Positions 3,442-60,905 of a stretch of DNA of 64,000 bases are shown in pieces. The position numbers were made by a program, and so were the translations under genes. Source of the DNA: Octopus vulgaris (lineage: Eukaryota); contig OX597815.1 of assembly GCA_951406725.2 (NCBI GenBank), forward strand, positions 214,210,001 to 214,274,000, given 5' to 3'. Every line of letters starts with the position of its first letter. Position 1 is the first letter of the stretch. The notes under the pieces are model-generated. The model ran no database searches, had not been told where the DNA came from, and was given only the letters and a program-made list of their open reading frames with translations.

Positions 3442-4310
3442 CAGGGTCCGATGGGTAAATTGTCATCATTTTATATTTTAATTTCGAGCATGTACATTAT
3501 TTGCTTTTGATTTTGTCGACTACACTGTATAGTAGGGTCAGTTGGGCGCCGTCTGTAAGAAAAACAGTACCATGGCGCAATTCACTCATTCAGAAATTTG
3601 GAAACGACATTGTGTGCTGCTTGGTATTCGCGCCGGACAATACGAACAGATGGTGAACACACAGAACAACCGTTAGCTTGCCGTATCCCCAAAACATGTA
3701 CTGAGAGTGATAAAACTGAAACATCCAGTCAACTTCATGATGCTTGGAGTGATCACTAGTGATGGTGACGCTATGCTTCCATTCATCTTTTCACACGGCC
3801 TCAGTCTCAACACAGAGGCCTACATCAAGTGCCTGGAAAAGGTAGTGCTGCTCTGGGTCAAGAGGGTGGCTGCTGGAAGACATGTCTGGCAACAGGACTC
3901 TGTACCATTCTACACAAGCAGGAGAACTCAGTCATGGCTGTCAGACAATTTCTGCGATCACATCACCTCTAACATCTGACCACCTAACTCCCCAGACTGC
4001 AACTCCTTTGGTTATTGTGTGTGGGGCGTAGTTGAGTGAGGGACCTTGTTACACCAAAGATGAACTGAAGGCAAGGATTATGGCAGCATTCACCAACTTA
4101 AGCAAAGAGACCATCTAGAAGAGCTGCAGGAGATTCCAAAGTCACCTGGAAGCCGTGGTTGAAGCCAGTGGCGATTTTATTGAATAAATTTACTCTTTAG
4201 TATTTCAAGATATTTTTATGTAATTTTGGTAAATATATCTGATAAAATGTGATGTCAGCATTATTTTCATTTTTGTGCAATTTAGACCACACTATATTCA
4301 CCGCACTCTG
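3442..4310 (+). mobile_element. Internally deleted Tc1/mariner transposon, maT (DD37D) type; transposase pseudogene
   Basis: TA flanks, degenerate TIRs CAGGGTCCGATGG / CCGCACTCTG; ORF 3707..3979 continues WQQDS...NI*PPNSPDCNSFGYCVWG, 37 residues between QQD and the (D>G) third catalytic position. Confidence 0.85.
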
Positions 4311-10984: not shown

Positions 10985-11401
10985 AAAGGTGGCGAGCTGG
11001 CAGAGTGGTTAGCACGCCGGGCGAAATGTTTAGCGGTATTTCGTCTGCTGTTACGTTCTGAGTTCAATTTCCGCCGAGGTCGACTTTGCCTTTCATCCTT
11101 TCGGGGTCGATAAATTAAGTACCAGTTACGCACTGGGGTCGATGTAATCGACTTAATACCTATGTCTGTCCTTGTTTGACCTCTCTGTGTTTAGCCCCTT
11201 GTGGGTAATAAAGAAATAGGTATTTCGTCTGCCGCTACGTTCTGAGTTCAGATTCCGCCGAGGTCGACTTTGCCTTTCATCCTTTCGGAGTGTATTAAAT
11301 AAGTACCAGTTACGCACTGGGGTCGATATAATCGACTTAATCCGTTTGTCTGTCCTTGTTTGTCCTCTCTGTGTTTAGCCCCTTGTGGGTAGTAAAGAAA
11401 T
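10985..11401 (+). mobile_element. SINE-A young-tail dimer
   Basis: Full unit plus 5'-clipped unit; 15 bp TSD ACATTGCTGATGCAT (10968-10982, 11402-11416). Confidence 0.95.
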
Positions 11402-11579
11402 ACATTGCTGATGCATGGAGTTATTTCAAACAGTCATTGCTGTGTATAGGACGGGTTCGACTATGAAGCAACACTATAATTAAATGATGAAAAACAATAA
11501 CTGCTGTTTGTTAATATTTTAATGTAAATGTATTTAGTTATTAAAATTAGCAATTTGAAATTGTTGGCAAATTGTTGTT

Positions 11580-19724: not shown

Positions 19725-20966
19725 TATGTTTGACTTTTGCTTTATATTTGTACAATTTGGCTCCAAGTCTCACCCGGAGACCTCAAGAGACAACAGGTTG
19801 GAAGTTCACGTTGTTGTTATGCCTAGTGTGCCATATATTTGGTTGTTTTTTGTGTTGTACTGGTGGATGTCTAAAAAAAAATGAAAACAAAAATGTTTGT
19901 TTTAAACCTTGAGATTACATAGAAAGTATTTTGCGTAGGATATGAGCAGTTCCCATGAGCACTATATTTTGAATTTCTGCCATTTTGGGGTTTCCTGGTA
20001 TCTGAGTTAGGTAGCAATCAGTCCCTTACGCTATCATTCCCAGGGCACCTATGACAACAAGTATTGTTTTAGTCTTCAGCTTCCACATTTTGCTGATTTC
20101 TATTTCAAGATCTTTATATTTGCTCAGTTTTTGGTAGGTCTTGACAGATACGTTTATATCGATTGGGACAGTCATATCAATGAGGAGGAATGTTCTTTGT
20201 TTGAAGTCTTTCAATATGATGTCTGGCCTATTTACATCTATCTTTCTGTCAGTTTGAATGGTGAAGTTCCAGAGGAGTGAGATAGGTCCTTTTCAAGCAC
20301 TGGGGGTGGTTTGTGTTCCCACCAGTTTTTTTCATGGGGCAAATCCAGGTTTTTTCAGATTACCCTGTGAATATATTGTGCAGCTCTATCGTGCCTGTTG
20401 AGATACACTGTAGGCGCTAGAAGACTGCACTTGGAGACCACATGGTCAATGGTTTCATTTTGTTGCTGGCATACACGACACGTTGGACTGCTTCTGATCT
20501 TTAATATGTTGGCCTGGTAGTTCCTTGTAGGTAGGCATTGATCTTGAGCTGCTATGATAAACCCCTCTGTTTCAGATTTTAAGCCAGAGGCCATTAGCCA
20601 TTGATGGGTCAGGGCTTTGTCAACATCTGCATTATTTGCTCTCTTTGGGTATTTGCCATAGAGAGGTTTTTCTTGCCATTTATCATTCAGAATATCTAAG
20701 GCCGCAGGTTTAGCACTGGTTTTCATGCGCTTAGCTTTTTCTGTGCCTGTTTCTTGTATGTCTATCTCTAATTCCGAAATTTGTTGTATTCGGAATTCAC
20801 TTAGATATTCATTTGCCTGTTTTGTTACTGAGTATGATGCTTTCTTGTTTTCACGTTTTGAGACAAGTTTTAACATCCAGTCCTCAGAGTTTTTCAGGTA
20901 GGTGTCTAGGCCAATTGTAGCAATCTTCATTGTTATTGCCAGTTGTAAAAGTCCACGGCCTCCCTC

Positions 20967-20969
<3 letters not shown>
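19725..20969 (-). mobile_element. R4/Dong-clade non-LTR retrotransposon, 5'-truncated (CCHC + restriction-like endonuclease)
   Basis: ETEGFIIAAQDQ, CRVCQQQNETIDHVVSKC, RHD, NRPDI..LIDMTVP..KLSKYKDL, VVIGALG, GTAHILRKILSM*; (TTA)n at both ends. Confidence 0.92.
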
Positions 20970-21018
<49 letters not shown>

Positions 21019-21430
21019 GGCGCAGGAGTGGCTGTTTGGTAAGTAGCTTGCTAACCAACCACATGGTTCCGGTTCAGTCCACTGCGTGGCATCTTGGGCA
21101 AGTGTCTTCTGCTATAGCACCGGGCCGACCAATGCCTTGTGAGTGGATTTGGTAGACGGAAACTGAAAGAAGCCTGTCGTATATATGTATATATATATAA
21201 GTGTGTGTGAATATGTTTGTGTGTCTGTATTTGTTCCCCTAGCATTGCTTGACAACTGATGCTGGTGTGTTTACGTCCCCGTCACTTAGCGGTTCGGCAA
21301 AAGAGACCGATAGAATAAGTACTGGGCTTACAAATAATAAGTCCTGGGGTCGAGTTGCTCGACTAAAGGCGGTGCTCCAGCATGGCCGCAGTCAAATGAC
21401 TGAAACAAGTAAAAAGAGTAAAAAGAGAGT
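21019..21430 (+). mobile_element. SINE-B full length
   Basis: GGCGCAGGAGTGGCTGTTTGG head, CTTGGGCAAGTG, internal TA/TG tract, AAAAAGAGT tail. Confidence 0.92.
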
Positions 21431-28328: not shown

Positions 28329-28579
28329 AGAACTCAAAAAGGGTTATTGCTAATATGATGCTCGAGTGATAAGTCAATGACTGGTGGATGAGCAGTAGAG
28401 AGAGAGAGAGAGAGAGGTGGGAAGAGTGAACGCGCACGCGTCTGTGTACATGCAACAACGAAAGCATATAATCCTAGTAGTAGAGTGGAATACATTTTGA
28501 AAAACATTGAGGTGGCGGTGGAAAGAAAAAGAGACGATGGAGCCAGAAATATGAGAAGTAGAAGTAGAGCAATAGAGTA

Positions 28580-29145
28580 ATGTATGATCGCGTTGATGGT
28601 TACACGTTTCGTTATAACCATGTTTATGATTATGCCTTTCGCTACATCCGTGTCCAGAACGGTACTTTTTGCAATATTCACGTTTCGCTACATATGATCA
28701 TATGTTTCGCTATATCCATGTCTATTATCATACATCTCACTACCTCCATACGTTTTGCTACATCTGTCTCAAAAATTGTACGTTTCGCAATATTTGTGTC
28801 TATGATTATACGTTTCCTTATATTTGTGTCTCCGATCGCTACATTCATGTCTATCATTGTAAATTTCATCATTTCGTGTCTATCATTGTACGCGTCATTA
28901 TATCCATGTCTATGATTATACGTTTCACTGTGTGCGTGTTTATGATTGTTCGTTTCATTATATCCCTCTCTATGACTACAAGTTTCGCTACATCCATGTC
29001 TCTGACTATATATTTCGCTATATTCGTGTCTATGATTGAACGTTTCGCTACGTTCGTGTCTATGATTGTACACTTCATTATATTCGTGTCTCTCCTTGTA
29101 CGTTTCACTATATCCATGTCTATGATTATACGTTTCGCTACATCC
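28580..29145. repeat. Degenerate 30 bp minisatellite, ~19 units
   Basis: Consensus TATGATTATACGTTTCGCTATATCCATGTC; CGTTTC recurs in 30 bp phase (28681, 28921, 29041, 29101). Confidence 0.9.
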
Positions 29146-29789
29146 GCGTGTGTGTGTGTATTTGCATGTCTGTTGAACACCCCAAGAAACAAAGGAGTCG
29201 ACATGACGTTGTGTCCTTATGCAAGGTACGTCGTGTCTATTGTTTCAGTTCTCTCAGCTGAAAATGAGCGCCGGTGACAGTTGGGAAGGGGTTTCGCCAC
29301 TACGACGGATTGGTATCTCGTTCAAGAAGACAACTTATAGCGTCCGTCGTTTAAATCCTTCAGAAAACAAGATAAGATCCGGACCAATTAGTCAATAGGC
29401 AGACGGTAGCATTTAACTTCATGTATGTATACAAACATATTTGCACAATGCTCAAAACAAGCACACGAATACATACAAATATACGCGCGGGCGCGCGCGC
29501 GCACACACACACACACACATACACACACACACACACACACATACACACACACACAGAATCGCTTCATTTAATATTATGCGCATGCTATTGTTATTGTTTT
29601 GCTTTTGGTTAAGTTATAACAACTGAAAGGAATTTCTAGCACTGCGCTAAGAGTTTTGGTCACCGTGTCTGGCGCTTACCCGTTAATAGGTTTATTGTCT
29701 GTTAACACAATAAGAAGAACGAAATAAATGATTGGGAATTGAAATTATTTTAATATCCAAGTAAGATGTGAAGCGAGATTTTTTCTGTG

Positions 29790-34480: not shown

Positions 34481-34941
34481 AGAATATCTTATCAGAGATT
34501 AACAGTTCGAAACTTATGGCTTCGCAGCTATTGTTCTTTCATTGAACAGTCAGGATGTAAACAGAATTGTGTTTTCTCAAAAGTATCGAAACCTCGTGTG
34601 ATGATCTTTTTACTTCTCTGATGGAGGTAACCCTATCATTTGTTTCTTTATCTCCTTTCGTTCTATCTTTCTTTCTTTCTCCCACTCTCTATCTATCTCT
34701 ACAGACATACACGCACACACACAAGCACATATACTTGTTTCAGTTTCCACTGAAGCTCAATAAAATATGAACCAGACAAAGTCACGGGTTTGATATAATC
34801 GACTGAAACGTTTGAAAGTGTCACCCTTGCGCAGCCGCACTACAAATTACTGAAATACCAATAGAAAAATAACGGAATAAAAATATCGATTTCTTAATTT
34901 GGAGCCTAAATTTAGTCGAGTAATTCTGTTACTTCAAACAC

Positions 34942-35177
34942 TTATTTCTTTTATTGCCCACAAGGGGCTAAACATAGAAGGGACAAACAAGGACAGACAA
35001 ACCGATTAAGTCGATTACATCGACCCCAGTGCGTAACTGGTACTTAATTTATCGACCCCGAAAGGATGAAAGGCAAAGTCGACCTTGGCGGAATTTGAAC
35101 TCAGAACATAACGGCAGACGAAATACGGCTACACATTTCGCCCGGCATGCTAACGATTCTGCCAGCTCGTCGCCTTA
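34942..35177 (-). mobile_element. SINE-A young-tail monomer
   Basis: Full head to tail; TSD TACTTCAAA(C/T)AC at 34930-34941 and 35179-35190. Confidence 0.93.
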
Positions 35178-37098: not shown

Positions 37099-39154
37099 TA
37101 ACAAAAGCACTCAGAGAGCGCAAACCTCCGCCAAGGTAACACCATTTCCTAATTTTTAATTATTCACCAGGGGACAATACGTAACATGTGGGGACACACA
37201 ACAAGAAAAAAATAGGACAAACGTGTAAAAAAAAATGAATGAAAAAGTGAAAACAGGAAAAAAATGGAACTAAACTACTCGGCCCCATCTCTGTGTAGCC
37301 TCATTTATATCTATTCTCTTTTAAATCCAGTTCCTTTAAGAATGTCTGTTTTATATTTTTATCAAAATATCCGTGCAATCTATAATTATTGGCATCTCAT
37401 CTCTGTCCAAGTTTACTTCCCAATACTCATACCCATAATCAAGTCTTTCTAATATTTCTGTTCATTCTTTGGTTAATATCACACAACTGTGCCACTGCTT
37501 CACATACTCCTCAGTCTTCACGCTTTTTACGTCTTTCCATGAAGCTATGTCCTGGTTTTGTTCTTAATTCATATCATAAATTATACCAATAAAGCTTTTG
37601 TTTTCCCTTTAACTGGAGGAGGGGAAGTTTGGAGATCCTTGTGATCGTGTGTCTTTTTCCTTTGTTTTTGTGTCGGAAGGAAATGGATAGACTTGGTGTC
37701 TGTGGGGGAGGGGAGCTGAGAGGGTGTGGGTTGGGGTTTTATGACCGTATAATTTGCCTTTTTACTTTTTCTTCTGTTTACTCCACTCACCGTTTTCCAC
37801 GTTTCCTCCCTTTACTTCACTGCTGGCGGCAAAGTTTCTTCCTTTTTTCCTGTTTCCTCCACCGGTTCTTACATTTCCTTCTCTTGTTCTTCCGTTGTCT
37901 TTTTGGCCGGTGAAGGGCAATCCACCCTAATGTGGCTGTTTAGACCACATTTGTAATATCGAAGGATTCTGCCTTTACCCTCATTACCACCTCGTCCATC
38001 GTTATGGTTTCCGTCATCATTTCCAACGTTTCCACCGACCCTTGAATGGTCATTTCCAGTGCTTGCCCCTTCCTCATTTCGCATTGTGTTCTAGTGGCCT
38101 GGAGCACCGTTATATCATCCTCATTTTCTATGAGGATCGCGGCTGCTATCCAGGCAACGTCTAACTCCGGCGGTATTCCTTCTACTCTTACCCTGGTTGC
38201 ACGTCGTCCAAGGTGCGTGGGAAGAAGGACTATTTCTTCTCTTTTGATGGTTTCTGCTGCATGCCTTTTTGTTGTTGCCGTACCAAATTTTTTTCCTCTT
38301 GCCAGGGTATGTAATTTTATGCCAAATTGGCCTAAGCCTTTCTCTATTTGGCTTGCAGTCATAATGTCTATTTTTCCTACTTTAACCGAATAAGTCTTGA
38401 ACGTAATGGTTCTTTCCCTTATGTCACTCAGTGTTTCCCGCTGGAGGGACAAGTCCACATTATACCCGTCCCTACTTAGAAATTCTTTAAAACTTTCAAT
38501 TTCCTTCATATCAATTTCATTTTCTTGACGTTTTGCCACATCCGCAAATTTTCTTTCCTTTTCAATTTTGTTGTCTCTCTTCCCATCAATTCATCTTCAG
38601 AAGACGACACTTCAGAAGACGACAGCTTCAGAAGCTGACATCCGAATAGAACATCTTCTTCTCCATTAGGTTAATTCTCCTCATGTGAGGAGGGAAAGGA
38701 CAAACACACTGCCACGATGCAGCAAAGAACAATTAACAAAAGTGTTCAAAAATCACTGACACAAAAAATTAAACGTCCGAACACGATGAAAATACTGGCA
38801 AAATAATGTACTTGCAACTTAGTACAACCTGAGGTGACACCAACGACCTCTCAACGATTAGCCAGAGATACCTTTTAAAATGAGAATATCCGAAATAAAC
38901 TCGACTGCTCTCACAAATGAGAATACAAAAATGAACCTGACCTCTCTCAAAAATTAAGTAAAAAAGCCAGAAAAATAATCCAGAATCCTCGTCCGGCACT
39001 AGATCAATCCCAAAATCTAATCAGTTCGTGCCAGTCACGAGGCTAAACACCCCTGAAAGTTTCATCCGAAGCCACCCAGTGGTTCTTGAGATATCTTGTC
39101 CACGAGCAAACAAACAAACAAACAATACCTCGGCCTTAACGAAAGCGGAGGTAA
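37099..39154 (-). mobile_element. Helentron-associated (DINE-1/HINE-like) element split by a retroposon
   Basis: subTIRs ACCTCCGC/GCGGAGGT, 5' hairpin 39126-39153, (TTTG)n, 3' hairpin GCGCTCTCTGAGTGC; pieces 37099-37144 and 38832-39154. Confidence 0.75.
37145..38831 (-). mobile_element. ORF1-only non-LTR retroposon (HAL1-like), copy 1
   Basis: 11 bp TSD AGGT(A/G)ACACCA (37134-37144, 38832-38842); decayed ORF1 (ORFs 37940..38539, 37869..38084) with (C>Y)YKCGLNSHIRVDC knuckle; no EN/RT. Confidence 0.85.
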
Positions 39155-47271: not shown

Positions 47272-47483
47272 CTTGCTGGTTTTTTTAACCCGAAAGAATT
47301 AATTATACTCAGAAACAAATAACAATATCGCTTTAACTGAAAATCAATTTTACCCATGAGCAAGAGACGAAACATGTCCACCAGTGCATTGTATCAAGGG
47401 TTTGAATGTATGTTCCTTCGAAGTATTACGTCTCTAATTTAGAGAAGATTACAAGAGAAAAATAGCATTGTTATTTTCCTCTA

Positions 47484-47554
<71 letters not shown>

Positions 47555-47559
47555 TAAGG

Positions 47560-48302
47560 GATTTTTAATTGCAGCACAAGACCAAAGCCTCCCCACCAGA
47601 AATTACCAAAACCATGTAATGAAAAGAAATATTACAAGTAACTGCAGAATATGTGGAGATGGACAAGAAACAATAAATCATATTATCTCTAGCTGCCAGT
47701 CCTGGCTAAGAAGGAATATATTCACAGACATGACAGAGTTGGAACCTACATACATTGGAAGCTATGCCAACATTATGGAATAACAACAGAAAAAAGATGG
47801 TATAGGCACACACCAGAAAAGGTCACAGAAAACGAGAAAGCAACCATACTTTGGGATATGCCGATACACACAGATAGAGAAATTAAGGCCAACAGACCAG
47901 ATATAGTTGTCAGAGATCATGAAGAAAAAAAATGCTTTCTAATTGATGTATCAATACCGGTAGATGACAACGTGTCTCTAAAAGAAATGGAGAAACTCTC
48001 AAAATACAAAGACCTGGAAATAGAGGTAACTAGAATGTGGAATCTGAAAACAGAAACAATTCCTATCATAGTAGGTGCATTAGGCATGATAAAAAATATT
48101 CAGACAAATACATAACAAAAACATCAGGACTTACAAACACATATAACACAGAAAATTGCACTACTAGTCACTGCACACATCCTACGCAGAACACTTTCCA
48201 TACAATAACCATCAGAGCATCACAACAAATCACAGCACATACCCAAGGCACACAGAGCTGCGCTCGGTAGTGAAGTGAAAGCACGCTATAAAAATAAAAC
48301 TA

Positions 48303-51660: not shown

Positions 51661-51782
51661 ACACACATATATATATATACATGCACACATACATATATGC
51701 ACACATACATGCACACATACATATATGCACACATATATATAAGATTCCGTTATATATATATATATATATATATGCACATATC

Positions 51783-52510
51783 GTAGGATGAGTTCCTGGA
51801 TCTTAAGAACTTTCCGGTCCAGAGAACAAGGTGTCATCATACCACTTTTTTCCTCCTTTGTACGGCCACACCTTGAATACTGCTGTCCACTGTGGTCTCC
51901 TCACACAAGACAAAACATCTCCAGAATTGAGTCACCCCAGAGGGCTCTCACTAAACAAATTGAAGGCATGGCTGCTCTCGATTATTGGGATCGCCTTAAA
52001 GCCTTGAAACTTTACTCCCTCCAGCGTCGCCGTGAGCGGTACATCATTTGTACGATGTGGAAAATATACCGCCAACTTTGCCCAAACTACCTAAACATTA
52101 GCTTCAAGGTTCATCCAAGACTTGGACCACGGGCTATACGTCCCCTGCCAAATTCAAGATCACAACATACATGTACACTGCAACATAATTTCTTTTCCTC
52201 AACAGGCCCTGCCCTATTTAACATTGTCCCGAGGGAGATCAAAGAGGAAAAGGATCCCATCAACTTCAAACAGAGTCTGGATAGATTCCTTCAAAGAATA
52301 CCAGATAAGCCACCTATAATTGGATACAACTCACCCAACAAGAACTCACTACTTGAACAAAACTGGATACAACTCACCCAATAAGAACTCACTACTTGAA
52401 CAAAACTTGACTTAAACAGGATTCGAATAATCCTATCAGGTGGTGCTATTAAGTTAGACATGGCCTGGACCAATCTCTGGTCGAAACATATCTAAGTTTA
52501 TCTAAGTTTA
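51783..52510 (+). mobile_element. CR1-group LINE 3' end (RT C-terminal region, 3' UTR, tail)
   Basis: ORF 51788..52384: WILRTF, VRPHLEYCCPLWSP, LYSLQRRRERY, GPALFN, FKQSLDRFL; tail TCTAAGTTTA x2; short tandem duplication near 52327-52408. Confidence 0.9.
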
Positions 52511-53962: not shown

Positions 53963-54984
53963 AAGGCGGCAAGCTGGCAGAAACGTTAATATGCTGGGCG
54001 AAATGCTTAGCGGTATTTCTTCTGCCGTTACGTTCTGAGTTCAAATTCCACCGAGGTCAACTTTGCCTTTCATCCTTTCGGGGTGGATTAAATAAGTACC
54101 AGTTACGCACTGGGGTCGATATAATCGACTTAATCCGTTTGTCTGTCCTTGTTTGTCCTCTCTCTGTTTAGCCCCTTGTGAGTATTAAAGAAATAGGTAT
54201 TTCGTCTGCCACTACGTTCTGAGTTCAAATTCTGCCGAGGTCGACTTTGCCTTTCATCCTTTCGAGGTCGATTAAGTACTATTTCTTTACTACCCACAGG
54301 GGACTAAACACAGAAAGGACAAACAAGGACAGACAAACGGATTAAGTCGATTATATCGACCCCAGTGCGTAACTGGTACTTGATTTATCGACCCCGAAAG
54401 GATGAATGGCAAAGTCGACCTCGGCGGAATTTGAATTCAGAACGTAGCGACAGACGAAATAGGGCTACGCATTTCGCCTGGCGTGCTAAAGTTTCTGCCA
54501 GCTAACCGCCTTAATTACCGATTAAATAAGTACCAGTTAGGCACTGGAGTCGCTATAATCGGCTTAATCCGTTTGTCTGTCCTTGTTTGCACCCTGTGTG
54601 TTTAGCCTCTTGTGGGTTGTAAAGAAATAGGTATTTCGTCTGCCGCTACGTTCTGAGTTCAAATTCCGCCGAGGTCGACTGTGCCCTTCATCCTTTCGGG
54701 GTCGATTAAATAAGTACCAGTTACGCACTGGGGTCGATGTAAGCGACTTAATCCGTTTGTCTGTCCTTGTTTGTCCCCTCTGTGTTTAGCCCCTTGTGGG
54801 TAGTAAAGAAATAGGTATTTCGTCTTTATGTTCTGAGTTCAAATTTCGCCGAGGTCGACTTTGCCTTTCATCCTTTCCGGGTCGAATAATTAAGTACCAG
54901 TTACGCACTGGGTCGATATAATCGACTGCCCCCCAAAATTCTTTCAAAAACAGTCGGGCCCTGAGCCTAGAGTAGAAAAGAATA
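53963..54984 (+). mobile_element. SINE-A tetramer with nested inverted copy (54280-54512)
   Basis: One full and three 5'-clipped units joined at GAAATA|GGTATTTCG; last unit has old tail. Confidence 0.92.
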
Positions 54985-56109: not shown

Positions 56110-56872
56110 ATAACTTGGCACTCCGTAGGTTACGACGAAGAGTACTCTAGTTGATCCGATCAACGTTACAACCTGCATGTGAAATTAACGTGCAAGTGGG
56201 TGAACACTCCACAGACACGCGTACGTTTAGCATAGTTTAGGCGGCGAGCTGGCAGAAACGTTAGCACGACGGGCGAAATGTGTAGCCGTATTTCGTCTGC
56301 CGTTACATTCTGAGTTCAAATTCCGCCGAGGTCGACTTTGCCTTTCATCTTTTCGGGGTCGATTAAATAAGTACCAGTTGCGCACTGGGGTCGATATAAT
56401 CGACTTAATCCGTTTGTCTGTCCTTGTTTGTCCTCTCTGTGTTTAGCCTCTTGTGGGTAGTAAAGAAATTGGTATTTCGTCTGCCGTTACATTCTGAGTT
56501 CAAATTCCGCCGAGGTCGACTTTGCCTTTCATCCTTTCGGGGTCGATAAATTAAGTACCAGTTACGCACTGAGGTCGATGTAATCGACTTAATCCGTTTG
56601 TCTGCCCTTGTTTGTCCCCTCTGTGTTTAGCCCCTTGTGGGCAATAAAAAGATAAGTACCTTTAGCATAGTTTTCAAGAAGGTTCGGCGTGGCACTGCAT
56701 GTTACAAGGCCGGCCTTTTTCAATTACAGGTACAACTTATTTTTGCCAGCCGAGTGGACTGGACCAACGTGAAACATAGTGTCTTACTCAATGTCACAAC
56801 GCACCTCCATGAATCGAACTCACAACCTTATGATTGTAAATCAAACCTAACCACTAAGCCGTGCGCCTTCAC
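56110..56872 (-). mobile_element. SINE-C interrupted by SINE-A dimer
   Basis: Body 56110-56238 and 56656-56872 with tRNA-like head at right end. Confidence 0.8.
56239..56655 (+). mobile_element. SINE-A young-tail dimer
   Basis: 18 bp TSD GTAC(G/C)TTTAGCATAGTTT at 56221-56238 and 56656-56673. Confidence 0.95.
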
Positions 56873-58405: not shown

Positions 58406-58637
58406 CATCGTAGATCCGAACGGGGTCGCAAGGACGGTTAATAGCGAAAATAAAATCGAAAAAGTGTGTGTCAGTATATAGTGTATGTGATTATTTAGTG
58501 GTTATTGAAGTGTGTCAGTCACATGCAGGATTCGAAACGGCTAATCGAAGCGGCTGTTGTCAATCAAAATAACCCATGGTACCCGTGTATTGTCACCTCT
58601 TTCTTTAACCCTTGTGGTTTGAATAAAATCATCGTTC

Positions 58638-60730
58638 TAGTTCTACTTTGTGTTAAAATACATATTTGTAGTAAGTCACTGTTAAATTAATTGTTGCACT
58701 GTTGAATGGCTGTTTATTCTAATTATTTTGTGTTGAACAACACTTTGTTTTGCTGCCTTACGACAGTTTTGTTGACGCCTTCCCCCTTGTTTGAAGGGGG
58801 TAGCACAGCGTTAAAAAATGGAGTATGACAATCTGAGTTCTTCCGAGGAAGAATTGCTGAAAACAATTTCTGTGATAGACAAAAAAAGAAGAAAGAATGA
58901 ATTTTGCGGCCGTGGTCAAAAGCCACAACGAACAAATTGATGCAAAGGAACTAGGTAAATGCAAGAATATGCTTCGTAGGTAGGGGCAAGACGTAAAGGT
59001 GTCCCCTCCCCGAGAAGTTATTACAGAAAACCAACCAAAGAAAAGATGATAATCTATAGAACTTACTCTGTCAAAACCAAGAAAATCGAATTAATGACTA
59101 CAATTCAAATTGAAAAGGCGTTAAAACCCATCTGGCAGAGGAAGAAAGTTCGGAACGGTGGAGGTGCGGTTCCGAGATGAAGCTACTGCCAGGCTACCCC
59201 TTAAAATCTGATGAGGTGTTACTTCTGCCCATATACCTTGGAAGACGTGCTTCCAGGGAAGGGGTAGAAGACATAGAAGCTAGTAACTGCTATACTGCTG
59301 GGCCTCCAAGCCACCAGCACTGCACATAAAAATTCGCAAGGGCAGGGCCTGGATATGGTAGTCTAGGCCACCCTGGAAGACCTGGAAAATATGGTCGAGA
59401 TCATTACATTCAAAGATGTAATACTCGGTGTTAGAGTGGTGGTCAGTATCCCTCGTTGTTACATATGTGGCCAAAAAGAGCACATTAGAGCGGAATGTCC
59501 TCCACCGCCCATAAAGTCACAAGAGGTACCCGTGATCGTAAAAGAAACTGCACCTCCACCGCCGGCAAGAACTAACGGAAGAGAGATCAGCACAGGGGGA
59601 AAAGGAAAAAATAAAACCAAAGACGGATGGGAAACTGCAGGAAAGAAGAACAGAAAGAGGAGAAAAAGTACAATCGGTGAACGATAATCCTCATCTCACA
59701 CCCATCCGACTCCCACCCAGACCCACACTGCTCCACCCTTCCCCTACAGACACTAACCCTCACCCTACCCCCACCTTACACTGACAAATTAACCACAAGC
59801 ACACAAGAGCCCCAAATTTCCCAAGCCCCAACCTGTGAAAAAAAGTATAGTGATTTACAATGCAAAACATGCTAAGCTATCTAAGGGGGTAGACAGGTGG
59901 GAAGAGTAGATAAAGGTAATCATTGTAGAGTGTGGGGAGGTGCCCTCGCACTATGACTGTGTGATAGTAGACCCCAGATACACATCAGAACTGGAAGAAT
60001 ACGGGAACAATGTTTTTCACTGGCGAAAGAAAATCGATACCAGGTATATACCAACAACAGTAGGTTACAAAGAACTTCTTAAAGACTTTAATATAGACAT
60101 TTTATGTGGTGAATAAGATTTTAAAATGTTTTATAATAAGTAAAATAAGTAAATTGTGTATATCTTTATATATAAAAGTGAGGTTGTGTGCTGTCTGTCT
60201 CCTACGATTTAGATTCCTAACTACTCCCACATTTTGCGGTGCAGTTTAACCAAAACCGGGTATCTTATAGTCGTGATTCATATCGAGCCCTTCTGGGTAT
60301 TAGCGCGCGTCTACGATGAGTCTACTATTAAAAAAAAAAATTACCATAAAGTTTTCCCATTTTTAATGCATTTTTGGCATATATAAGGGAAGTAACTCTC
60401 TAAAAATTTATTATTAAATCTCAGAACGTAAAAAGCTAGAGTAACCCCCCCCTTTGTGGTTAGCTATATTGAGATGGCTATTATACTTTACATCTCTAAA
60501 AATGCTTATATAGTTATTTCCCTTACAAACCCGAGCAACGCCGGGCGATACTGCTAGTCAAAGATAAATGAAGTCATCTGGATGTGGGGTCGAGTGGCTT
60601 CATTCCGTTTTTCATTTGATTATTTAATTCATCCTTTTCATTCGAATTTTTTGTCCCCATCCTTGGGTTTTTTGTCTGTCCTTGTACTGTCACCTCTATA
60701 TTGGCCCCGTGTGGGCAATAAAGAAATAAG
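58638..60730 (+). mobile_element. ORF1-only non-LTR retroposon (HAL1-like), copy 2
   Basis: ATG 58818; decayed ORF1 homologous to copy 1 (RTYSVK, RGRKFGTVEVRF, LLPIYLGRRAS, CYICGQKEHIRAEC); T-rich 3' UTR ending GTGGGCAATAAAGAAATA; 5' end approximate, no clear TSD. Confidence 0.82.
60163..60557 (+). mobile_element. Non-autonomous Helitron nested in the retroposon 3' UTR
   Basis: A|TC start, CCCGAGCAACGCCGGG hairpin, CTAG|T end. Confidence 0.9.
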
Positions 60731-60866
60731 TTTGAGCTAGTTCCACCGTTCGTGCGTTGATAGTTCACAGCTCGAGTTAGCGCGTTGGATTGTTGTTACG
60801 TTCCGTGTGCTTACGGCCGTTTTTTCGATTATATTGTTGCAGTGTATTCGTTTATCCGTAAGGGTA

Positions 60867-60905
<39 letters not shown>

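Follow-up and report, generated by a model that had tools for sequence, protein, structure and literature searches.

An ORF1-only L1/Tx1-type retroposon lineage of Octopus vulgaris, often found a short distance downstream of TATA boxes

The stretch of DNA analyzed here, referred to as the window, covers 64,000 nucleotides (nt) of the Octopus vulgaris genome (contig OX597815.1, positions 214,210,001 to 214,274,000). It holds two copies of a retroposon that codes for the first open reading frame (ORF1) of a LINE (long interspersed element), and not for the endonuclease and reverse transcriptase (RT) of ORF2. It is probable that both copies belong to one long-lived ORF1-only lineage of L1/Tx1 type, which likely borrows the endonuclease and RT of its relatives through a common 3′ tail. 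Its members are often found some 30 nt past a TATA box, a position that is likely a transcription start site.

Copy 1 was given in the initial annotation as 1687 bp between an 11-bp target site duplication, and both the size and the pair of repeats were recovered, the repeats with one mismatch (Table 1). The 5′-side partner of the pair is AGGTGACACCA, at 38832-38842, and the pair was the sole flanking direct repeat of at least 9 nt in the scan; comparison with a second occupied site (L008; loci are referred to by L numbers) suggests that it is the decayed remnant of a duplication of 16 to 17 nt. The ORF1 of copy 1, which was traced from translations, tblastn to intact relatives, a profile of the C-terminal domain, and a model of an intact relative, carries at least three frameshifts plus stops. 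The nearest relatives of this copy in the genome are 82% and 77% identical. The repeat that it split, which by its anatomy may be Helentron/DINE-like, joins up across the insertion, and the same host site is also occupied in L002, L008, and L017.

For copy 2, the size proposed earlier, about 1700 bp once a nested Helitron is removed, held up at 1689 nt, but the start is better placed at 58647 than at 58638. The nested insert itself, which is Helitron-like, was rightly called, since a stretch of 395 nt is missing from three related loci (L036, L037, and L046); its exact ends, A^TC...CTAG^T with a 3′ hairpin, were read from the TC and CTAG termini between A and T. L032 and L048, unlike the window, retain the upstream part of the copy 2 host, in which TATAAA precedes the site by about 30 nt. 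Directly before copy 2 lies a tail-like sequence. A reading of it as a long terminal repeat (LTR) or a Penelope-type element was dropped; it is the stub of a separate autonomous family, of which L034 has a longer piece and L033 a piece that, on visual reading, looks like an ORF2 end.

The two copies align along their length, with 60 to 75% DNA identity in the best blocks, and all of the peptides quoted as aligned in the initial annotation are present. Neither copy has ORF2 similarity after its ORF, in agreement with the earlier statement that endonuclease and RT are missing. The zinc knuckle described there as CX2CX4HX4C is complete in copy 2 (Pfam zf-CCHC, E = 6e-5), whereas in copy 1 its first Cys reads Tyr. 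Of the proposed layout (5′ untranslated region, one decayed ORF, and T-rich 3′ untranslated region), the single ORF stands, but some 270 to 300 nt of the supposed 3′ untranslated region codes for protein.

Table 1. Features of the window that belong to the two ORF1-only copies, their host repeats, and the tail-sharing short interspersed element (SINE)
Feature	Position	Strand	Remarks
Copy 1, full-length ORF1-only element, decayed, 1687 nt	37145..38831	-	Flanking duplication; member of the no-ORF2 clade
Copy 1, 3′-end target site duplication AGGTAACACCA	37134..37144		11 nt, 1 mismatch vs 38832-38842
Copy 1, 5′-end target site duplication	38832..38847		11 nt clear; ~16 nt by comparison with L008
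Copy 1, ORF1 remnant	37345..38667	-	Acidic N-terminus, two RRM-like domains, zinc knuckle, linker, C-terminal domain
Copy 1, 3′ tail	37145..37215	-	Degraded version of the tail common to autonomous elements and SINE
TATA-like TTTTAAAA in the copy 1 host repeat	38873..38880	-	32-33 nt upstream of inferred first nick; relaxed pattern only
Host repeat split by copy 1	37100..39154	+	~370 nt without copy 1; hairpin end
Copy 2, full-length ORF1-only element, 1689 nt minus nested insert	58647..60730	+	Member of the no-ORF2 clade
Copy 2, ORF1 remnant	58818..60116	+	Complete zinc knuckle, C-terminal domain, frameshifts, stops
Nested Helitron-like insert in copy 2, 395 nt	60163..60557	+	Gap vs L036, L037, L046
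Copy 2, 3′ tail	60671..60730	+	78-85% identity over ~60 nt to tail of window SINE copies
Copy 2, decayed 5′ target site duplication, ~16 nt	58631..58646		Partner 60731-60746
3′ tail stub of an autonomous L1/Tx1-type family	58582..58630	+	Directly upstream of copy 2, at the same site
Downstream part of the copy 2 host repeat	60731..60870	+	LTR-like by TATA box and CA end (candidate)
SINE tail sharing the element's 3′ end	56597..56656	+	
SINE tail sharing the element's 3′ end	34941-35001	-	
SINE tail sharing the element's 3′ end	54756-54813		
SINE tail sharing the element's 3′ end	11345-11402		

What had been described as a family of two copies has members in the hundreds or more. DNA searches returned 164 and 321 candidates for the two window copies, of which 40 were scored for each, and the best other copies are 77 to 82% identical; with the rate given in PMC13282606, 0.0036 per million years, this would correspond very roughly to 30 million years. 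In a protein search with an ORF1-only query, 136 of 35,800 first-look candidates were scored, and the DNA was examined for all 136 places and for 20 more from a zf-RVT search, most of them with intact ORF2. Among the 136 places, 116 were without ORF2, 16 had one, one was ambiguous, and three were unplaced; as the query was itself ORF1-only, the ratio of 116 to 16 is biased and gives no ratio for the genome. The tail was found 550 to 950 nt past the ORF1 core in 77 of the 116, and the other 39 have at least 1.4 kb free of ORF2. The anatomy is bimodal: the tail lies either about 570 to 830 nt past the core, with no ORF2, or about 4150 to 4420 nt past it, with an ORF2 that starts 500 to 850 nt past the core. 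Nine ORF2 queries had zero matches in the interval from ORF1 to the 3′ end of the ORF1-only units. Where duplications were called, these units have a median length of 1662 nt (n = 46); the duplications themselves have a median of 17 nt (n = 64).

The units without ORF2 also hold together in phylogenies. In a FastTree tree of 232 ORF1 cores, 170 units, including both window copies, fall on one side (support, 0.88), none of them with ORF2, and all 39 ORF2-bearing units lie outside it; the same split has a support of 1.0 in a smaller ORF1 tree. With IQ-TREE and 59 representatives, 39 rows without ORF2 sit on a 98/97 branch that excludes all 13 rows with ORF2. Placing copy 1 together with the commonest autonomous family, one alternative picked after seeing the tree, was rejected by the approximately unbiased (AU) test (p = 0.00025). 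The clade is under purifying selection: for 66 cores with open frames, the median ratio of nonsynonymous to synonymous change (dN/dS) is 0.32, 0.21, 0.19, 0.13, and 0.22 in bins of rising dS, with 596 of the 2145 pairs saturated, and for autonomous ORF1s it is 0.13 to 0.29. Choosing open frames favors low dN/dS, though not this far at dS above 1. Intact frames of 480 to 510 codons are found in head-to-tail arrays without ORF2 (L130, L131, L136, and L139), and there are mixed arrays with autonomous elements (L119, L138, L166, and L217).

Since they form one clade of near-uniform length under purifying selection, the ORF1-only units are not sporadic deletions, and the long-lived non-autonomous lineage put forward in the initial annotation is supported. 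The check proposed there, for sporadic deletions among ORF2-bearing homologs, was run on the 136 places and on the trees just described. A further ORF2-less unit, L130:4608-5801, stands among autonomous ones. Outside the main clade there is a second, very long-branched ORF1-like group (L140, L158, L171, L176, L178, L192, and L222), with arrays at the head of a second SINE; ORF2 was not seen in the two L140 units that leave room to check.

The ORF of these units is homologous to the ORF1 of ORF2-bearing units, with 26 to 36% identity by tblastn and alignment. Among Pfam domains, zf-CCHC alone was significant in ten ORF1s. Both window copies code for a C-terminal domain of about 90 to 100 amino acids after a proline-rich linker, recognized by a profile of 20 related copies with E = 4e-15 in copy 1 and 2e-32 in copy 2, close relatives of which are included in the profile. 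An intact member was modeled with a mean pLDDT of 72 (above 85 in the core); in the model, two alpha/beta domains that match RRM pairs are followed by the knuckle, a disordered linker, and the small C-terminal domain; the alpha/beta domains resemble IMP3 RRM12 (Foldseek E = 1.5e-5) and the La RRM (Z 8.5, rmsd 2.5, 79 aligned), and a feature search gave CCHC proteins and the ZCCHC3 RBD1/RBD2 architecture at 0.90 to 0.92. Judged by this model, ORF1 probably binds RNA. A sequence search of the PDB with an ORF1 profile matched the zinc knuckle and the low-complexity linker and nothing else, and a fold search with a single-sequence model of the C-terminal domain (pLDDT 62) gave a best Z of 3.4 and no assignment. 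Profile-profile comparison of the C-terminal domains of the autonomous, old ORF1-only, and young ORF1-only groups gave probabilities under 1%.

Intact autonomous elements of about 5.2 to 5.5 kb carry a homologous ORF1 and an ORF2 of 1125 to 1148 amino acids with endonuclease (APE), RT, and zf-RVT domains, and they make up several families, 56 to 90% identical. The solved protein closest to this ORF2 is human L1 ORF2p (E = 4e-66, compared to 4e-26 for R2). By their APE, RT, and C-terminal zf-RVT domains the partners belong to the L1/Tx1 group, and their ORF1 type and target preference suggest that they may be Tx1 rather than L1. Most of the autonomous families end in the ORF1-only tail, at equal distance past AATAAA. 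Because they have a homologous ORF1 and this common 3′ tail, these intact L1/Tx1-type elements are the likely source of ORF2; together, the common tail, common sites, and mixed arrays suggest that the ORF1-only lineage is mobilized in trans by partner ORF2. Some autonomous families have other targets, namely (CT)n (L123, L126-L129, and L145), a run of (ATT)n that follows L122, and a single fixed site where the arrays have a ~5.4-kb period (L111-L115; G000 C2:73046133-73062761).

The same tail is also carried by an abundant tRNA-like SINE. Its tails score best, at 36 to 40, against ORF1-only tails of the copy 2 type and no higher than 29 against those of autonomous elements, and it may therefore have taken its tail from the ORF1-only lineage; the degraded tail of copy 1 scores only 17 against SINE tails. 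There are 5,996 exact matches of a 44-nt pattern from the head of this SINE, which has an internal 184-nt tandem unit. SINE copies (window 11035-11402 and others; L350-L379) end at the same tail position and have duplications of 13 to 20 nt.

The ORF1-only units recur at fixed sites, which include two SINE heads, two sites in the copy 1 host, an LTR-like repeat, (CT)n, and others. At the second SINE head the hosts are 75 to 89% identical and the inserts of two subfamilies 63 to 68%; with hosts so much closer than inserts, these insertions must be independent. The two subfamilies concerned, unrelated to each other (L141, L172, L188, and L138; L079, L148, L157, L194, and L200), sit at exactly the same base; their duplications are 13 nt long, and their tail is a variant that ends in GAAATAAA.

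Elsewhere, up to half of the sites have a TATA box at a set distance in common. With the nick set 6 nt past the AATAAA of the tail, TATAWA starting at −33 to −28 was found in 10.0 of 20 non-SINE target groups, compared to a mean of 0.3 and a maximum of 1.5 in other 6-nt windows. The rule was then fixed in advance and 53 fresh loci were tested: 4 of 13 new groups had the strict box (0.22 in other windows; binomial P ~1e-4) and 6 of 13 a relaxed one (P ~2e-5). For the autonomous elements, 60 loci were screened and 20 extended, yielding 12 non-tandem groups with a duplication; the box, counted by hand, was present in 3 of the 12, one of them among six truncated copies and two among six further groups. 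The spacing, in sense orientation, thus holds at a minority to half of the sites in the three sets. Dropped before counting were tandem neighbors, microsatellite and SINE-head targets, the two copy 1 host sites, repeats of discovery targets (L257, L262, L273-L275, and L283), and internal false matches (L252, L254, and L389). The TATA background is about 2%, and the mirror position on the other strand had the box in 0 of 20. The tail-sharing SINE, with a callable duplication at 13 of 30 loci, had it at 0 of 13 sites (Fisher p = 0.004 versus all 33 groups), and its duplications mostly start with TA-rich bases. Over the pooled 33 groups, A+T reaches 81 to 90% at −29 to −24, and no common motif appears at the nick.

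About 30 nt is the textbook distance from a TATA box to the start of transcription, and the TATA-spaced sites are likely transcription start sites; the SINE-head and (CT)n subfamilies look sequence-specific instead. Two of the targets precede transposase-like frames in sense, one by 14 nt before the ATG (L133) and one within ~200 nt of a helix-turn-helix frame (L085), and a scan of four loci for tRNA genes found none. In L277, the ORF1 coding sequence of another element contains a TATAAA, and 30 nt past it, still within that coding region, an ORF1-only copy is inserted.

Several points weigh against this picture. The TATA window of the discovery set was chosen after looking, and the rate fell to 4/13 and 3/12 later, so that most of the later sites lack a strict box. 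Initiator motifs are not enriched at the nick. Compared with the validation set alone, the SINE control gives p = 0.096 for the strict box and p = 0.015 for the relaxed one. Neither window copy is a clean case, as copy 1 has the relaxed motif only and copy 2 has lost the upstream part of its host. The automatically called duplications were kept on visual judgment. Several target groups show roughly the same divergence for the host as for the insert, which would also fit movement as a composite, and for this reason each target group was given one vote. As to the lineage itself, five rows without ORF2 stand among the autonomous rows of the IQ-TREE tree, so either ORF2 was lost more than once or these rows are truncations; and with 136 of 35,800 candidates scored, a closer autonomous relative could have been missed.

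A few 5′ ends bear on where the RNA begins. L230 and L231 sit at a site without a TATA box and, after their own duplication, begin with 19 nt identical to the TATA-bearing target of L120, from 2 nt before the nick; L243 and L254 likewise carry the duplication of L234. Since these 5′ ends match the target of the donor, the simplest reading, for few cases, is that the donor RNA began about at the nick and was driven by the host's promoter. An automatic scan for such ends was noisy, with 406 of 1280 shuffles at a score of 9 or more, and therefore only exact matches to a donor's site were used.

In the reading that we favor, the element likely takes over the promoter of its host: RNA would be made from that promoter, starting about at the nick, and the donor's duplication would thus lie at the 5′ end of the RNA. 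ORF1 would be translated and bind its own RNA, the ORF2 of a partner would recognize the tail and prime reverse transcription at the nick, and the duplication would restore the site, so that repeated insertion could build arrays. The least certain step is what ORF1 is kept for: it may be needed in cis, and it may also anchor the particle to the complex bound at the TATA box, for which TRE5-A of Dictyostelium gives a reported precedent. Such tethering is a reasonable guess, because the ORF1 of TRE5-A, which binds TATA-binding protein (TBP) in vitro, is regarded as the part that detects the target, and the ORF1-only TRE5-A.2 targets like the full element (PMC5391098, PMC5911963). That it is how the TATA box is read in octopus is a tentative analogy, and we would sooner doubt it than rely on it. 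The contrast with the SINE could fit tethering by ORF1; ORF2 or the RNA is equally possible as the aiming part, and the SINE may use another partner. A predicted complex of the ORF1 core with the TBP core, made without alignments, scored 0.00 and bears on neither side. The genome has TBP exons on contig C14, and C23 carries a second, diverged gene of the TBP family (L285-L289). Put more broadly, one can envision, again with some doubt, that octopus L1/Tx1-type elements aim through ORF1 at the TATA-bound pre-initiation complex and insert at the start sites of other transposons, gaining a promoter with each landing; the ORF1-only lineage would have kept its ORF1 for tens of millions of years for aiming in cis, while the SINE, without ORF1, lands in TA-rich DNA.

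The main rival to aiming through ORF1 is Tx1-like sequence specificity combined with selection. Partner endonucleases would cut their own short sequences, and landings next to a promoter, being the only ones transcribed, would come to dominate, making TATA a by-product and leaving ORF1 no part in aiming. This plainly fits the SINE-head and microsatellite subfamilies, and it is in line with the exact recurring sites in SINE heads, (CT)n, and the copy 1 host, with the sites common to ORF1-only and autonomous units (L106 with L136 and L161; L120 with L143), and with Tx1 families fixed on Mariner, LTR, and Harbinger sites, for which the endonuclease is credited (Kojima 2015, PMC4494074, as far as accessible). 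As an account of the TATA spacing we think it rather unlikely, if well worth keeping in mind. Members of one young family lie in unrelated sequences that have the TATA spacing alone in common (L106, L107, and L108; L133, L143, and L239), the 33 groups have no common motif at the nick, and the box is also found at 5′-truncated copies (L239, L294, and L387). The tail-sharing SINE lacks the spacing as well, though its use of the same ORF2 is only a presumption.

Other readings concern the units themselves. They might be passengers, carried inside host DNA transposons, Helitrons, or duplications, with each shared site going back to one old insertion, and host and insert are indeed similarly diverged in four groups (T6, T7, V10, and C2), while L236/L237 and L273-L275 are near-identical duplications. 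Across the SINE-head subfamilies, however, hosts are far closer than inserts; the 77% sister of copy 1 (L003) lies in an unrelated site; and each of the 33 target groups, unrelated to one another, comes with a duplication of its own, so that this account, which may hold for single groups, is refuted in general and seems to us improbable. Sporadic internal deletion of autonomous elements would explain the homology of ORF1 and tail to theirs, as well as the five nested rows mentioned above. It is largely refuted for the sampled units, and very improbable, given the ORF2-free clade, the uniform length, a dN/dS of ~0.2 at dS above 1, the young intact arrays, and the AU test. Hardly credible, finally, is an origin as processed pseudogenes from a domesticated host gene that combines a zinc knuckle with two RNA-binding domains. 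The feature search did place ORF1 with a ZCCHC3 RBD1/RBD2 and zf-CCHC cluster (score, 0.90), but the units have a retrotransposon tail and no poly(A), form many subfamilies that are saturated at silent sites yet under selection, and have an ORF whose homolog in autonomous elements precedes ORF2.

In a search of sequencing runs, the body of the element was covered in four contig runs under four organism labels, which speaks to the presence of the DNA only, and no RNA run was listed as holding it. Word-based protein searches matched only hypothetical proteins of O. vulgaris. Annotated proteins of this kind (P0001, P0002, P0005, and others) consist of one to three copies of the family's C-terminal domain and are likely gene models stitched across arrays; pieces of arrays have in this way been filed as octopus protein-coding genes. 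Elsewhere in the window, open frames at 1081-1804, 20355-21050, 47466-48115, 51743-52384, and 3677-3979 were read by eye as decayed other LINEs and Tc1/mariner transposase. A degenerate 30-nt tandem repeat of ~10 to 20 units at 28568-29277 is open in several frames on both strands. An Rfam scan of the window gave no match.

Why some non-autonomous LINEs keep ORF1 is an open question. The genome has ORF1-only copies that are young and intact, partners that are intact, and a SINE that has the same tail and no ORF1, and these offer a three-way test of the role of ORF1 in cis. Should the TATA spacing prove general across the genome, it would be a targeting rule for non-LTR elements that our literature search did not find, and one class of transposon would be seizing, and likely disabling, the promoters of others. 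If aiming through ORF1 is true, a non-LTR element would be taking its position from RNA polymerase II core promoters and would be parasitic on other transposons. Not noted in the initial annotation were the tail in common with the SINE, the fixed target sites, the arrays, and the spacing from the TATA box.

The comparisons below follow the accessible parts of the cited papers. A 2026 annotation of O. vulgaris reports 80 L1-Tx1 consensus families, 13 of them recently active (PMC13282606); the autonomous partners, and perhaps the ORF1-only elements too, may be among these 80, and the family may already stand in Repbase, Dfam, or that library. In what could be consulted of that paper, ORF1-only elements and TATA targeting are absent from the main text, and ORF1, non-autonomous, HAL1, and target are absent from the supplement. 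An octopus SINE, OR2, is named only as a CORE SINE (PMC4758252). Our literature search, thin on subscription journals, turned up no description of an ORF1-only element in cephalopods or of TATA-spaced insertion by a non-LTR element.

Among the Tx1 families, Tx1L, Keno, Kibi, Koshi, and Tx1-Mar, together with SINEU, are APE-RT elements fixed on transposon or microsatellite sites, with SINE partners and a proposed transcription from the flank (PMC4494074). That paper does not contain the words "TATA" and "ORF1" and, in its accessible part, describes neither an ORF1-only lineage nor a spacing from start sites. Yeast Ty3 is placed at transcription start sites by TBP-containing TFIIIB (PMC5911963). 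It is, however, an LTR element that uses an integrase at RNA polymerase III genes, whereas the octopus elements presumably make target-primed insertions at TATA boxes in other repeats. HeT-A of Drosophila, of the jockey clade, is ORF1-only and telomeric, forms head-to-tail arrays, and has autonomous relatives; the octopus arrays differ in being interstitial and in having target duplications.

The closest likenesses are to HAL1 and TRE5-A.2, and since these are already known, the ORF1-only part of our finding is a known kind of element. HAL1 is a non-autonomous derivative of L1, coding only for ORF1p, that arose several times from mammalian L1 (PMC5753468). The octopus lineage is likewise non-autonomous with ORF1 only. 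It differs in being one deep clade with many subfamilies, young intact copies, fixed targets, and a defined tail that lacks poly(A), and it falls outside HAL1 proper, with two RRM-like domains and a CCHC knuckle in place of the Transposase_22-type domains of mammalian L1 ORF1. TRE5-A.2 of Dictyostelium is an L1-clade element without ORF2 that is mobilized in trans and forms tandems at reused targets (PMC5391098, PMC5911963). As with TRE5, insertion is at a fixed distance from a position where TBP would bind, which in octopus is the TATA box at −33 to −28 in a minority to half of sites. TRE5 elements, which have a promoter module of their own, are inserted ~47 bp ahead of tRNA genes and oriented opposite to them, in contrast to octopus sites, which are downstream of TATA boxes, in sense, and inside other repeats; the octopus lineage is also deeply separate from its partners. 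It works, then, like HAL1 and TRE5-A.2 and is a member of neither, and it is set apart by its depth, by the SINE tail, and above all by the TATA spacing.

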